IMG/VR virus record: IMGVR_UViG_2698536647_000011
Location: 1 to 27,882 of that record
Reading direction: 5' to 3' (one strand)
Origin: a virus
Taxonomy: Duplodnaviria > Heunggongvirae > Uroviricota > Caudoviricetes
DNA: 27,882 bases
The first letter of the stretch is position 1; each line of letters starts with the position of its first letter. Position numbers and translations under genes: made by a program. This document shows, piece after piece, positions 3,463-22,848 of the stretch. The notes beneath the pieces were generated by a model. The model saw nothing but the letters and a program-made list of their open reading frames with translations. It searched no databases and was not told the DNA's origin.

Positions 3463-5384
3463 TATTCATCTCCAGATAATGCCCGCGCGTAATCCGCCAG
3501 GGTCTTGTTATTGTTACGGCTGCCTTCTTCCTCCAGCAGGCTGGCCAGAAGTGAATCAAGATTTAGCTGCCAGCGGGATATGCTTATACGCAGCGCCGCC
3601 AGTGCATAAACAAAGCAATCGAGCGCCTCATTTCGTCGTTTTTTGCTGTCCCATACGATCTTTTTCTTTCCGTCTACCCATTTTTCCACCTGCTCTTCAG
3701 CTGTTAGTTGTTGGGCCTCTGTTAGATCGTAGATTTCTGGGTTATTCGGGAAATGAACCGCTCCCGCCAGCGGCTCGTCTCTTTGCGCCACCAGCGTGAA
3801 ACGGTTATAAATCTGCTCTTTTGCGGTGTCTGTTCCTACCTCTGTGAGGTAAACACCATTCTTGTTACGCTTGCGTGGCATGTTCGCCACTGGCTTTCCA
3901 TAAACCGACGCCCCCTTTATAGGGATCACACGAAACAGACCGTGTTTTTTTGAGCGGTTGTAGACGATGGTGGGATCAATGCCGCCAATATCCCAGCAAG
4001 TGCGGGATATAACCATTTCGAGACCGTTCTGGCGCTTATACGTCCTGTTGATCGCTTCATCAACTCGAGCGAGAGTCGACTCATCATCATGACGACCCAT
4101 AATGATAATTTTGTCGATAAGCCAGCTTTCCTCTCCCGGCCCCCATCCCCAAACACGCATTTCGTAACGGTCAAGCTGGGAGTCAATACCCGCTGTCAGA
4201 TATGCCACTCGCTCCGGCACAGACGCTTCAAAGTGCTCTTTTCGTTCCGCTAAAACTTCAGCATCGGGTCGTTCACCTATTTTCGGTTCCCACGTTTCGC
4301 CCAGGGTCGTGTTAACGAAAGTTTTTCGCTTACCCGTATCACCTTTTGTTTTTATCCAGTCCTTGACGATCTGCACCCAGGTTGTGAACGGGCTATATGC
4401 GGTCCAGATGTGGAATGTAACGCTGTCAGGAGGTTCAATTTCGGTACCGGATGAAGAAAACCAGTTAAGGCCGTCTCGTGTCCAGATACCTGTTTCATCA
4501 CAAATATACCTGGCCTCCAGAAATTCCAGCTCCTGTTGTTTAATCACACAGGCATTGTGTTCACAGAGGTAGTAAACGCTGGCAGGTTCTCCCGGAGACC
4601 ATTTGAAGCCAAATGGTGTCTCTTTATCACCGAATTTCAGATACTGCTCTTCCCCACAGTGTGGGCATGGAACATGGAACCGAAGAAAATGTTCAGACTC
4701 CTTAGCAGCTCTTTCTATCTGGCACGTACCTTTGACTTTCGGTGTAGATCCGCGAATGGATTTCGGCCATACAGAACCCTCAATACGCTTATCACCCAGA
4801 AAGGTGGGAGAACCTTCTTTCTCGATGTCATCATCGAAAGCGGCGAGCTCGTCGTAGCCAGCCACATCAACTGATTTTTCACGGTAGTTTTTTGCAGCCT
4901 TACCGCCCAGGCACCAGAAACCACGACCATTCGAGAAACGCTTCATGCTCAGCGTATTGTCCCGGTGTTTTTTACCGTACCAGGGAGCAAGCGCCAGCAA
5001 CGTCGGAATATCACGAATGGTCGGTTCTACATGAGACTTCATGAAGTTTTCAGCATCACCGTCGGTTGGTAACCATATTAGGGAGTTACGCTGTTTATGT
5101 TGGATGAAATATGCGTAAACGCCGAGCAACATTTTTGAGTAGCCGACACGAGCCGATTTAACGACATTCACCTCGCGAATATAGTCATTACCCATCGCAT
5201 TCATAATTGCACGCTGAAATGGCAGTGTTTCCCAGCGCCCTTCCTGGTAGGCAGACTCTTTCGGGAGATAATAATTCTCATCTGCCCATTCAACTGCTGT
5301 TTGCGGTTGCGGCCGGTACAGCGAACGTAACCCCGCCCGCGCAGAGTGCTGCAGCCCCTTAACCTGACTGTTCGATATATTCAC
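3462..5384 (-). CDS. A: Terminase large subunit (lambda gpA-like)
   Basis: 640 aa, lambda gpA length and position between Nu1 and W; 5' end overlaps Nu1 3' end as in lambda. Confidence 0.95.
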
Positions 5385-8144: not shown

Positions 8145-8161
8145 GCTCATTCCTCAGTTGT

Positions 8162-8186
8162 TAAAAAGCCCCGCGAGTGCGAGGCG
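8162..8186 (-). terminator. Intrinsic terminator after lysis cassette
   Basis: On - strand GCCTCGC-ACTC-GCGGGGC hairpin (7 bp with one G-U) followed by TTTTT. Confidence 0.5.
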
Positions 8187-18831: not shown

Positions 18832-19065
18832 TTAGGCCGCAGTATCACGCGGCGATGCGAATACCAGGCTTTCTTTTAGGACCGGAGCCTGGCGGTGAAA
18901 ATTCTTCGTGCCTTTCTCGATAGCAGATGCCATTTCTGGAGATGCCCGGCGATTTCCGTAGGCGATCTGGTCCAGGTAACCTGGCGTCGTGTTAGCCAAC
19001 TTTGCGAGCTGCGCCCATTCGTCGGTAGTGGCGGCCTTGCGCCAGCGGTGTAGTTCAGTGCTCAT
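18832..19065 (-). CDS. Cro-like HTH regulator (YdaS/Cro family)
   Basis: 77 aa with HTH (WAQLAKLANTTPGYLDQIAYGNRRAS); divergent from cI across operator region. Confidence 0.7.
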   Translation of the reverse strand: MSTELHRWRKAATTDEWAQLAKLANTTPGYLDQIAYGNRRASPEMASAIEKGTKNFHRQAPVLKESLVFASPRDTAA

Positions 19066-19089
19066 TGGTGTCTCCGGGTGAGTCGTTTG

Positions 19090-19160
19090 ATTTGGAGTTT
19101 AGCGTTATGCTAAATACTACGCAAGCATCATTTAGCAATTTGCACATTTATCATTTTGCT
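19090..19160. promoter_or_regulatory. Right operator/promoter region (OR, pR/pRM) with TTTAGC-N5-GCTAAA-type operators
   Basis: TTTAGCGTTATGCTAAA (perfect 6-bp arms), TTTAGCAATTTGCACAT, ATCATTTTGCTAAAAGC between divergent cro-like and cI starts. Confidence 0.6.
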
Positions 19161-19181: not shown

Positions 19182-19859
19182 ATGGAAAATAAAGAAATCA
19201 GAAAAGCCAACCTGGAAGCGCTGTACGAGAAGCGTCAGCACGAGTCTGGAATGACCAAAGCGCAGTTTGCCGAGCTCATCGAGACAAGTCCGGCTGCGCT
19301 TAGCCAGCTACTGGGACCAAACCCTCATCGCAATATCGGCGATAAGATGGCTCGCAAAATTGAAACTGCGCTTGATCTGCCTTTTGGCTGGATGGATGTT
19401 TTACACGCCAGTGAAGAACCTTCGAACGTTGCATTTCGAGGACTGAACGAGACAAAAGGAAGTTATCCTGTAATCAGCTGGGTAAGCGCGGGGCAATGGA
19501 TGGAAGCTGTAGAACCTTATCACCGAAGAGCGATAGATCGCTGGTATGACACGACTGTTGACTGCTCAGAAGATTCATTCTGGCTGGACGTTAAAGGGGA
19601 TTCTATGACCTCCCCGGCTGGACTGAGCATACCCGAGGGAGCAGCGATACTTGTTGATCCTGAAGTCGAGCCGCGCAACGGAAAGCTGGTTGTCGCGAAG
19701 CTAGAAGGCGATAACGAAGCGACCTTTAAGAAGCTTGTAATCGATGCCGGCAGACGCTTCCTAAAGCCCCTTAACCCCGCATATCCAATGCTAGAAATTA
19801 ATGGAAACTGCAAAATCATCGGCGTTGTGGTTGATGCCAAAATACTAAACATCCCATAA
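19182..19859 (+). CDS. cI: CI-type repressor (N-terminal HTH plus C-terminal LexA-like S24 autopeptidase)
   Basis: ...VKGDSMTSPAGLSIPEGAAILVDPEVEPRNGKLVVAKLEGDNEATFKKLVIDAGRRFLKPLNPAYPM... matches lambda CI C-terminal domain; no SD before ATG, consistent with a leaderless pRM transcript. Confidence 0.9.
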   Translation: MENKEIRKANLEALYEKRQHESGMTKAQFAELIETSPAALSQLLGPNPHRNIGDKMARKIETALDLPFGWMDVLHASEEPSNVAFRGLNETKGSYPVISWVSAGQWMEAVEPYHRRAIDRWYDTTVDCSEDSFWLDVKGDSMTSPAGLSIPEGAAILVDPEVEPRNGKLVVAKLEGDNEATFKKLVIDAGRRFLKPLNPAYPMLEINGNCKIIGVVVDAKILNIP

Positions 19860-19877
19860 CCTCACGCAAAACCCCTC

Positions 19878-19903
19878 AAGCCCGCCATCGCGCGGGCTTT
19901 TTT
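19878..19903 (+). terminator. Intrinsic terminator downstream of cI
   Basis: AAGCCCGC-CATC-GCGGGCTT followed by TTTTT. Confidence 0.6.
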
Positions 19904-19942
19904 ACGTCCCGAATTCCTTCGCTGTAAATTTTTAATCGCTTA

Positions 19943-20017
19943 TTAATCAATACGCTAAATAAAACCATTCAACAATTTAGCATTTTGCTATTGCGCATAA
20001 TTTAGCATCACGCTAAA
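19943..20017. promoter_or_regulatory. Left operator/promoter region (OL, pL) with three TTTAGC-N5-GCTAAA-type operators
   Basis: TTAATCAATACGCTAAA, TTTAGCATTTTGCTATT, TTTAGCATCACGCTAAA; same half-site as OR. Confidence 0.6.
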
Positions 20018-20029
20018 TTTATCCCATCG

Positions 20030-20753
20030 AAACGAAACATCGACAGCTGAGCGAAGTTAGCCAGCGGCGGACAGCAAGTCGCCTGCTTTTTAACAACATG
20101 CAGATTTACAGCGTCAATGACCTGTTAAGACCCCTACACGAAAACGTGCTGTATCACCGGGTGCGATCCGGTCGGTGAGAGAGTATCCCCGCGCGAGAGC
20201 GATAACGGCGTGAGAACGGGCAACACTGGCAGGGAGTTGGCGCTTAATGAACAAATCTTAGCTGCCCGGCTGGCAACCTACTGCCAATAACACAGCTTTC
20301 CCCGTATGAGAGGCTAACTGCGGGGCGCGGACTCGACGCGTAGTACAGGTGTAACCCGCAACACGAAGTTCGAGTGGCGTCCGTCTGGTAAGTGGCTACG
20401 GCCTGCAACTGGATGAAACGCCAAGGGTGACAGCCGGAGAGACGGCTCACAACGAAAAGAGCGCTGGCATGCAAAAAATAATCTCGCAGCCATTGCAGTA
20501 CCAAAAGCCAGGATGGAATGGCAAAACGCGGTAGTGCTCTTTTCGTTGTGGCGAAGTGCTTTGGGGTGAAGCGGCGTGGGAAATCGGTGACACGCAAAGT
20601 GGCGAACCGTACACACTGAATCACGGGGTTGGGTAGCAAGGTGGCCCACGGAAGCGCGAACGAGCGGACCGGAACACATCGCCGGGGTAACGTCCGGCCT
20701 TCACCACCAAAGCATTTCTCCCGCATCTGCGGGTAACGATAGAGGGTAAGGGG
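20030..20753 (+). ncRNA. Candidate long structured leader/ncRNA downstream of pL (no + strand ORF of 60 codons or more)
   Basis: About 700 bp, GC-rich; hand-checked ATG ORFs are all 27 codons or fewer; many short GNRA/GAAA-type hairpins; early hairpin GGCGGAC-AGCAA-GTCGCC then TGCTTTTT at about 20063-20091. Confidence 0.25.
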
Positions 20754-21050
20754 ATGATCGACGACATCAAGCGCATCGACTCAATGATAAATGCGCTTCG
20801 CAATATGAAACAGGACATCAAGCGTCAGCAGAAACTAAGTGAAATAAACAGTTTAGACCTGTCGCCGAAGCAAGCTCAAAAGCGCAATGCCGATGCTGAC
20901 TGGATTGCGATGGAACAGATTAAGCGTCGGCATGAGCTGCACGCTCTGTCTGTTGAGCTTGGGTTCGCTGAGCGCCGGGAAAGTTATGCTCCATTTGAAT
21001 TAACTGACGGGTGGCACCGATTCGACCACAAGCCGCGCGAACCTCAATAG
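20754..21050 (+). CDS. Hypothetical protein (98 aa), first ORF of early-left operon
   Basis: ORF with GAGGG RBS; charged helical sequence; not Arg-rich-motif N-like. Confidence 0.45.
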   Translation: MIDDIKRIDSMINALRNMKQDIKRQQKLSEINSLDLSPKQAQKRNADADWIAMEQIKRRHELHALSVELGFAERRESYAPFELTDGWHRFDHKPREPQ

Positions 21051-21213
21051 CCGCCTAACCAGCGGCTTTTTCATACCTGGAGTCATTTACGAGTGGCTCA
21101 AGTTATGACAACCGGCGGCCATCCACCGCCCATTGAAACACTGAATAAATGCGTTGAAGTCTTGTATTAACCGTTCCGCTGGCCTGGCGACAAGGGCAAA
21201 CGAGGGGATTGAG

Positions 21214-21483: not shown

Positions 21484-21757
21484 GTTTCAGGGCTAACGGC
21501 TGATCCTGTTCCGGCACATATCGCTCTTTGACAATAACAGCCAGTTTTTGCTTAGCCGCAGGGTCGTCATTAGATGTGACGAGTCTGTTTATCTGTTCTG
21601 AAAGTGAAAACCATCCGTGAGTATCGCAAACGTAAACCACTGATGGAACTTCACGAATAGTTGGTGGTTTTACTTTGATGTTAACCAACTGATTTGTCTG
21701 GTTAAAAGACAAAGAATCTTCACCACAAATAGGACATGGCTTAGTTACTGATTTCAT
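21464..21757 (-). CDS. Zinc-ribbon protein (YgiT/MqsA-N-like CPxCG...CxxH), antisense to early-left operon
   Basis: MKSVTKPCPICGEDS...VYVCDTHGW...; strong RBS (AAGGA, spacer 6). Confidence 0.5.
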   Translation of the reverse strand: MKSVTKPCPICGEDSLSFNQTNQLVNIKVKPPTIREVPSVVYVCDTHGWFSLSEQINRLVTSNDDPAAKQKLAVIVKERYVPEQDQPLALKPIESLA

Positions 21758-22708: not shown

Positions 22709-22848
22709 GCGAAAGCCCACCGAAGTGGGCCCGCCATGTCCGGCCTCACCGACCAAAGTTACACCGGAAACAACATTAAAACCAAAGTTAACCCAATGGG
22801 CGCTATCAATGGTCCGGGGATTCTAACACCCAAAAAAGAGGATCTCAC

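Follow-up and report, generated by a model that had tools for sequence, protein, structure and literature searches.

What fills the first 700 bp or so behind the early-left promoter pL of a lambdoid prophage when no gene can be found there? The question is raised by positions 20030-20753 of the window, as we call the whole 27,882-nt stretch of DNA that was analysed. A first-pass annotation, made from the letters alone, described a GC-rich, structured region free of open reading frames (ORFs) at a place where the antitermination gene N was expected, and it left three possibilities standing: a large cis-acting antitermination or regulatory RNA, a trans-acting non-coding RNA, or a decayed N gene. 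We find that 20026-20753 is, with near certainty, the untranslated 5' leader of the pL operon, standing ahead of an intact N gene of the phage phi80 type, and that this leader holds two structured modules. One of them, which we call module B, contains the nutL site annotated in phi80. The other, which we call C2, is a real RNA structure and a new, position-specific element.

The anatomy of the locus emerges from its alignment with phi80. The window is a lambdoid prophage, with a cI-like repressor gene (domains HTH_3 and Peptidase_S24) that ends at 19859 and is flanked by operator-like repeats of the TTTAGC(N5)GCTAAA type (19065-19160 and 19940-20020). These repeats are unlike the phi80 operators, and on sequence comparison the prophage appears to join a non-phi80 immunity region to a phi80-type pL transcript. 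Homology to phi80, HK225, KO-TP1 and HK639 starts at CCATCGAAACG, position 20023; from this point and from the phi80 annotation, transcription would start near 20026. The pL, nutL boxA and nutL 'core' annotations of phi80 (JX871397) align at ~19991-20019, 20084-20092 and 20137-20148, and together with the aligned N gene they identify the region as the pL leader, 728 nt long if the start is at ~20026. N itself, expected inside the stretch and suspected to be missing or decayed, is intact and begins one base after the flagged stretch (Table 1), and no gene remnant was seen in the six frames. The identical phi80 protein is annotated 'early transcription antiterminator protein N' and in phi80 sits behind a 406-nt leader; it belongs to no Pfam family and falls into PHROG 25091 (function unknown).

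Within 20030-20753 there is indeed no plus-strand ORF of 60 codons or more. The largest encode 35, 35 and 33 amino acids (the last, an ATG ORF, at 20518-20619), so that the 18-27 codons first given for the largest ORFs were slightly low. Neither the antisense ORFs of 160 and 121 amino acids nor any of the six stop-masked frames matched PHROGs or Pfam. The description as GC-rich holds only modestly, with a GC content of 0.52-0.59 in the leader against 0.43-0.50 in the flanks; the transcript strand is skewed towards G over C and A over T, and a G over C skew on the transcript runs against Rho loading. A search of the whole window with Rfam 15 at gathering thresholds gave a sole match, to isrB at 22710-22807, and nothing in the leader, and relaxing the cut-off to E values of up to 10 over 19800-21200 brought up sub-threshold chance matches only. 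The window has no tRNA or tmRNA genes. Among 5426 complete Escherichia coli genomes, the UPEC85 prophage is the sole one to carry the full stretch, at 99.9% identity, and RefSeq leaves it unannotated.

Structure is confined to part of the leader. Folded as a whole, the region was uninformative and not strand-specific (z -2.8 on the plus and -4.3 on the minus strand, 20 shuffles). When it was folded in pieces, with 200 shuffles per piece, only C2 (z -5.65) and the nutL domain (z -2.0, with strand-specific folding) did better than shuffled sequence, and the claim of structure throughout ~700 bp has to be given up: ~270 of the 728 nt are structured, in modules B and C2 only, and the spacers C1 and C3 form an unstructured mosaic of ~340 nt. 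The single hairpins first named are present, namely CACG-AAAA-CGTG (20137-20148), CGC-GAGA-GCG (20192-20201) and AGCCG-GAGAGA-CGGCT (20432-20447), as is the hairpin with a U-run near the start; the CCCCG...CGGGG helix, at 20300-20325, falls inside spacer C1. Covariation analysis revealed compensatory pair changes in both B and C2.

C2 consists of a hairpin, P0, and a core that is closed by a near-perfect helix of 18 bp, P1 (20448-20465 with 20533-20550). The core further contains P2 (20489-20494 with 20517-20522, 6 bp), P3 (20508-20510 with 20514-20516, 3 bp) and, in the model, a 3-bp helix P1b, and the joining regions between the helices are near-invariant. Across the 52 non-redundant sequences of the model 95.8% of the cells are paired, and ten pairs have changed on both sides, compared with 2.2±1.1 in shuffles (0 of 500 reached ten) and 0-4 in slid controls. 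P0 covaries as well: the homologues have at least nine different stem sequences, each folding into a 5-6-bp hairpin that ends 1-2 nt before P1. The covariance model scores 130 bits on the plus strand against 25 bits on the minus strand, and G:U pairs, one of them invariant, also favour the plus strand. The only ATG ORF in C2 (21-35 amino acids) is broken in relatives by 1-2-nt indels in an A-run, and nucleotides are conserved at all codon positions. The string TGCTCTTTT (20535-20543), which the first-pass annotation took for a boxA, is part of the 3' arm of P1; the genuine boxA lies in module B. C2 matches no Rfam family and no annotation, and its sequence was not found in full-text literature searches.

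C2 was first met as a 128-nt piece (20423-20550) that E. coli EC7 carries at the corresponding place in an unrelated prophage. With search patterns that fixed parts of its sequence, it was found in ~115 IMG/VR viral contigs (three pattern scans), in ~44 metagenome contigs (gapped scan; none more divergent than ~83%), in two Pantoea genomes (species-representative genome scan, with otherwise chance matches only), in 22 of the 5426 complete E. coli genomes (one copy each, unannotated) and in four named phages, Klebsiella ST101-KPC2phi6.3 and vB_VIPKPNMC05 and Escherichia vB_EcoS-733R5 and vB_EcoS-716R3. Its model has no match in phi80, HK225, P13374, KO-TP1 or HK022. C2 always lies downstream of the repressor gene, at the start of the pL transcript: in 95 loci it is on the repressor's strand, 128-1300 nt past the repressor stop codon, and over these loci the repressor alleles vary widely and the first genes downstream differ (RdgC-like, Ea22-like, phi80 N and others). 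In other prophages it stands alone at the transcript's very start. Promoter-like sequences lie ~190 nt upstream of P0 in locus L153 (TTGACC-17-TACATT, found by scan) and ~25 nt upstream of P0 in L107-type loci (TTGACC-17-TAGATT, read by eye). No protein is universally linked to C2, the largest downstream protein cluster covering 57 of the 95 loci; a common partner protein was considered and rejected, phi80 N and a frequent 99-aa downstream protein being unrelated.

This constancy of place bears on whether C2 works as RNA at all. The element carries perfect terminal inverted repeats, CACAACGAAAAGAGC and GCTCTTTTCGTTGTG, and homology breaks at its edges, as might be the case if it acted as DNA, whether as a small mobile inverted-repeat element or as a site for recombination or protein binding that is bounded by terminal inverted repeats of 15-18 bp. 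We regard this as very improbable, given that there is one copy per genome, in a constant place and orientation relative to the repressor, that G:U-type substitutions are tolerated in the plus sense only, and that not just the ends covary but also the inner helices P2 and P3 and the hairpin P0.

A different use of the closing helix is suggested by tRNA genes. In at least seven loci such a gene begins inside the last 3 nt of the P1 3' arm (tRNA-Arg UCU in L092, at 5296-5372, and in L088, L089, L039 and L127; tRNA-Asn in L133 and L135), so that cleavage by RNase P would trim the closing helix of C2. C2 might then serve as a module for processing, or might itself be a small, stable RNA that possibly acts in trans. 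With P1 cut by RNase III, or the junction to the abutting tRNA cut by RNase P, either a ~75-105-nt RNA would be released or the 5' end of the downstream mRNA would be set. The RNase III site of the lambda N leader and the RNase P-processed c4 RNA of phage P1 are parallels. Such a role seems unlikely to us, because tRNAs are absent from most C2 loci, near-invariant sequence over ~60 nt inside the element is more than an RNase III site normally requires, the downstream genes vary so that no target complementarity can be proposed, and C2 is without a terminator of its own; yet it would suit the near-perfect pairing of P1 over 18 bp, the start of two different tRNAs within its 3' arm, the single copy of C2 on the pL side only, and the existence of a second long-stem element that has similar ends and also abuts a tRNA.

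This second element is ~85 nt long, reads CACA[AG]C...G[UC]UGUG with a conserved inner CAGUUAUGGGUGACAGGUGUGAAAC, and lies near C2 on the same strand. It was seen in L092 (5116-5200, minus strand), L070 (7468-7554, plus strand), L088 and L089, with a weak match in L151/L139 (6485-6563, minus strand). Against the C2 model it reaches 18-31 bits, most of which come from its stem, and the tRNA that it abuts is the tRNA-Arg of L070.

Strong terminators are concentrated shortly downstream of C2. On the sense strand 22 of the 25 strong terminators were within 1 kb downstream of C2, and on the antisense strand 7 of the 15. In eight loci (L080, L032, L029, L043, L078, L041, L026 and L031) a conserved stretch of ~250 nt, 100-320 nt downstream of C2 and before the Shine-Dalgarno sequence of the first gene, holds two consecutive strong terminators, GGCGGUGG...CCACCGCCCUUUUU and then GCCCGGUUCGCCGGGCAUUUUUUU. 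In some loci this tandem-terminator stretch is overlapped by a short candidate ORF whose beginning is rich in Arg (MPNRLRTTTQSRLRTV...). One may ask whether C2 is a sensing leader, a riboswitch or attenuator by which a ligand, a protein or physiological state settles the outcome at the terminators that follow closely. Its covarying helices do surround highly conserved junction nucleotides, and in this one subfamily the tandem terminators do lie between the element and the first gene. However, the terminators are 250-860 nt off and do not overlap C2, which leaves no visible expression platform with alternative pairing; most loci are without such terminators, and the downstream genes are mutually unrelated. 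We therefore hold a sensing function to be improbable.

Module B is already known as the annotated nutL of phi80, an annotation that itself says 'putative'; its extended structure and its independence from N are absent from the annotations. A scan with the boxA pattern gave three matches in the window, against 0.33 expected, of which the one in module B is exact and the other two have one mismatch each. Of the latter, CGCTCTTTGACAA (21522-21534, plus strand) belongs to the pL operon, past tL1A; GGCTTTTTAACAAC (8158-8170, minus strand) lies on the pR-direction strand, after a GC hairpin and just before an ORF, and resembles the hairpin-boxA arrangement of 20066-20096. In relatives the boxA of module B reads TGCTCTTTAACAA or CGCTCTTTAACAA (family form YGCTCTTTAACAA). 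The structured domain starts ~25 nt downstream of boxA and has closing helices CCUGUU/GGCAGG and CCC/GGG. Its hairpin H1 (20137-20148, CACG-AAAA-CGUG), the phi80 'nutL core', covaries strongly (A:U/G:C 12/11 and G:C/A:U 11/10), and the H1 loop varies among close relatives (AAAA, UAAA, AGAAA, CAAA). H2 (20154-20178) covaries, and H3 (20189-20208, CGC-GAGA-GCG) is variable, usually with a GNRA-type loop.

The distribution of module B is wide. A 17-mer from its core matched at least 119 viral contigs, and parts of the leader region are present in 298 of the 5426 E. coli genomes and in 119 phage records, ~100 of them Stx2a phages. Variants of B are 70-100% identical, and boxA is kept across them even where the upstream flank is unrelated. 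In phages without a detectable phi80 N homologue B is conserved at 93-99% (P13374, L006, 2501-2661; HK225, L007, 2497-2704; ~100 Stx2a phages); in phage P13374 it lies upstream of Rha/Ash and ORF6N (Ant-like) genes and downstream of a restriction-modification pair. Homologues of phi80 N were found by tblastn in 22 phage records only, none of which is HK225, KO-TP1 or a Stx2a phage carrying B. Judged by this distribution, module B travels independently of N. No second, pR-side copy of the leader was found in the window, module B included (by BLAST only for B), and full-text literature searches with the B sequence gave no match.

Taken together, the leader is a mosaic, assembled by recombination from portable modules. 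Before ~20023 the operators differ from those of phi80; 20023-20244 (modules A and B) is 98.5% identical to phi80, 20245-~20706 (C1 to C3) is unrelated to it, and 20707-21050 (module D and N) is phi80-like again, the segments 20026-20244 and 20707-21050 together being 98.5-100% identical to phi80. The module boundaries fall at these homology breaks. The pL start, boxA, 'nutL core' hairpin, N gene and tL1A terminator are as in phi80 (JX871397, M11919); the immunity region (operators, repressor) is different, and the leader, at 728 nt, exceeds the 406 nt of phi80 by ~320 nt; replacement or insertion accounts for ~460 nt of it, C2 among them, which phi80 does not have. The first ~45 nt of module A also open the pL transcript of HK639 (L009, 34336-34379), just ahead of its annotated putL-like RNA. 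Module D, with a hairpin CCCGCA-UC-UGCGGG (20720-20733) and a Shine-Dalgarno sequence (GAGGG/AAGGGG, 20742-20753), precedes different genes, over ~50 nt, in HK639 (L009, 33652-33701, an unrelated gene) and in L115-type contigs. On these alignments, the pieces of the leader seem to be exchanged as cassettes.

A patchwork of this kind could also be what is left of a gene, whether a degraded N or a moron, or functionless mosaic junk, and the two spacers (20245-20431 and 20551-20706), which show little conservation and fold no better than shuffles, in a leader 320 nt longer than that of phi80, would fit such an origin. But N is intact, the six frames have no Pfam or PHROGs match, and B and C2 each persist as a separate conserved block amid otherwise unrelated flanks, with compensatory pair changes in both. 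For B and C2 decay is thereby largely refuted, and as an explanation of the region it is barely credible. Outside the leader, the match to the Hfq-binding small RNA isrB (minus strand, 38.2 bits against a gathering score of 35) lies just upstream of a RecE-like gene, on the opposite strand.

Table 1. Features of the pL leader and its surroundings, in order of position in the window (z, folding score relative to shuffled sequence, with the strand in brackets)
Feature	Position	Strand	Basis or remark
Intrinsic terminator after the cI-like repressor gene	19878-19899	+	Terminator scan
Putative pL promoter, TTGCGC, 17-nt spacer, TAAATT	19991-20019	+	Aligned to the annotated phi80 pL -35/-10
Module A, 5' end of the pL transcript	20026-20083	+	98-99% identical in phi80, HK225 and KO-TP1
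Hairpin GGCGGAC-AGCAA-GTCGCC with U-run, directly 5' of boxA	20066-20083	+	Terminator scan
boxA TGCTTTTTAACAA	20084-20096	+	Annotated nutL boxA in phi80 (JX871397); exact pattern match
Folding piece, nutL domain (B)	20108-20246		z -2.0 (+), +0.62 (-)
Module B structured domain, ~115 nt	20121-20233	+	RNAalifold, 23 non-redundant homologues: 6 pairs with compensatory changes
Spacer C1	20245-20431	+	Absent from phi80; 92-98% shared with the L115 group, L072 and L099 contigs
Folding piece, spacer C1	20250-20395		z +0.97 (+), no better than shuffles
C2, ~120-nt structured RNA	20432-20550	+	Covariation, covariance model, fold z
C2 hairpin P0, AGCCG-GAGAGA-CGGCU, abutting P1	20432-20447	+	Homologue folds
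Folding piece, C2	20433-20553		z -5.65 (+), -5.72 (-)
C2 core	20448-20550	+	52 non-redundant sequences
Spacer C3, unique to this prophage and UPEC85	20551-20706	+	Covered in 1/5426 E. coli genomes
Folding piece, spacer C3	20556-20700		z +0.70 (+), no better than shuffles
Module D, portable 5' untranslated and translation-initiation region	20707-20753	+	phi80 homology resumes here
phi80-type N gene, 98 aa, intact	20754-21050	+	100% identical to phi80 AFV29181.1 over 98 aa
Intrinsic terminator, equivalent of phi80 tL1A, first terminator met by the pL transcript	21049-21067	+	Terminator scan; phi80 annotates tL1A directly after N

How does such a leader compare with the antitermination systems that have been described? 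As in lambda nut, a boxA at the start of the pL transcript is followed by a small hairpin with an A-rich loop, then by the N gene and a terminator. A boxA near the 5' end of an early transcript is thus present; N, although intact here, does not accompany the site in HK225, KO-TP1 or the Stx2a phages, and no nutR copy was found. Unlike in lambda nut, the boxA is of the rrn type and is preceded by a hairpin. H1, which lies 3' of boxA as a boxB would, has a covarying stem but a variable loop, and a 115-nt domain of several helices surrounds it; phi80 N can be assigned to no recognisable family and is without an arginine-rich N-terminus, and many phages that carry module B have no N homologue. The order of hairpin and then boxA is, we assume, that of rrn and not that of lambda, and TGCTCTTTAACAA, the boxA of relatives, is what we take to be the rrn boxA consensus. 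Module B thus resembles the E. coli rrn leader (boxB-boxA-boxC) in having a hairpin (20066-20083) followed by boxA (20084-20096), with the presumed consensus form in its variants, and both would protect a long untranslated, structured RNA. It differs from the rrn leader in its phage promoter context and in the domain downstream.

For C2 the nearest comparison in place is with put. In HK022, put antitermination is protein-independent and depends on the zinc-binding domain of the RNA polymerase beta-prime subunit. Like C2, the put RNAs of HK022 and HK639 are structured RNAs just downstream of pL; they act in cis, in lambdoid phages without a recognisable N, and HK639 is annotated with a putL-like RNA on the left side only, HK022 having L and R copies. 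Put is a V-shaped RNA of ~70 nt with two stems, and this RNA alone antiterminates from just downstream of pL (PMC9378689). C2, in contrast, is ~120 nt long with an 18-bp closing helix, and has no sequence or covariance-model similarity to put. A string shared with HK022 putL, CAGGATG(G)AACGGCA, was considered as a sign of homology and rejected, since the C2 model scores no more than 11.6 bits anywhere in the HK022 immunity region; for HK639 the comparison was made with MAFFT and blastn in place of the C2 model, and neither aligned its putL-like segment to the window. The ops/JUMPstart element of RfaH, GGCGGTAGnnTG, was rejected too: C2 has CGCGGTAGTGCT, in which the GCGGTAG core is present but with three mismatches overall, so that it goes unmatched when two or fewer are allowed, and there is no JUMPstart Rfam match. 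C2 is therefore a member of none of lambda nut, put, ops and the Rfam families; it belongs with the leader RNAs of lambdoid early operons.

Of the three possibilities with which we began, a cis-acting antitermination or regulatory RNA is the one favoured by the position in the pL leader, the annotated nutL and the covarying C2, except that there is not one large RNA but two modules, of ~115-150 and 120 nt. The account towards which we lean slightly is that of a modular pL leader in which B and C2 act in cis against termination. According to this proposal, both modules, freshly transcribed, would act on the very RNA polymerase that made them and render it resistant to Rho, which would otherwise attack ~700 nt of untranslated RNA, and also to later intrinsic terminators, tL1A in this prophage and the tandem terminators in relatives. 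For module B the means would be boxA together with the host factors NusB/NusE, whether phi80 N takes part or not; the binding of NusB/E to boxA is the key step in lambda N and rrn antitermination, in rrn without need of boxB (PMC2800207). C2 would work through some partner, which may be RNA polymerase itself, as with HK022 put, or host factors, or an unrecognised phage protein. By analogy, C2 may be a cis-acting antitermination or anti-Rho signal comparable with nut and put and a member of neither. For C2 taken by itself we put an antitermination role forward tentatively, as possible rather than probable.

Several observations weigh against this proposal. The function of C2 is read from its position only, and its boxA-like UGCUCUUUU (20535-20543) is buried in the 3' arm of the 18-bp P1, so that binding of NusB/E should be blocked. 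Unlike nutL and putL, which have nutR and putR as counterparts, C2 is not repeated in the pR operon, as searched with the covariance model in the window and 100 loci. A strong intrinsic terminator within 1 kb is found in only 15 of the 63 non-redundant C2 loci, and the tRNA genes abutting C2 fit a processing or stable-RNA role equally well. The diversity of C2 is shallow (83-100% identity), and much of its sequence invariance could therefore reflect recent ancestry. As for module B, its presence in more than 100 phages without a detectable phi80 N homologue leaves the label of 'N-utilisation' unproven.

Processive antitermination is a textbook feature of lambdoid phages, many of which are without a recognisable N, and to our knowledge put is the only mechanism that works by RNA alone. 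C2, being conserved, covarying, unannotated and located at the nut/put position upstream of terminators, is a testable candidate for a second RNA antitermination device. The phi80 'nutL' label is itself called into question by a ~150-nt structured module with an rrn-type boxA that moves independently of N, and this module is present in Shiga-toxin phages, where read-through of the early operon matters for induction. For prophage annotation, a gap of 700 bp is explained and a mistaken call of a missing or decayed N is prevented. One may speculate further that C2 is a new, self-sufficient class of antiterminator RNA, structurally unrelated to HK022 put, which binds the polymerase or host elongation factors and passes Rho-dependent and intrinsic terminators without any phage protein. 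We consider this speculation rather doubtful. If it were true, N-independent RNA antitermination would be common in the lambdoid prophages of Klebsiella, Enterobacter, Pantoea and E. coli, and the widespread 'nutL' domain of phi80 would likewise be an rrn-like boxA device that needs no N.

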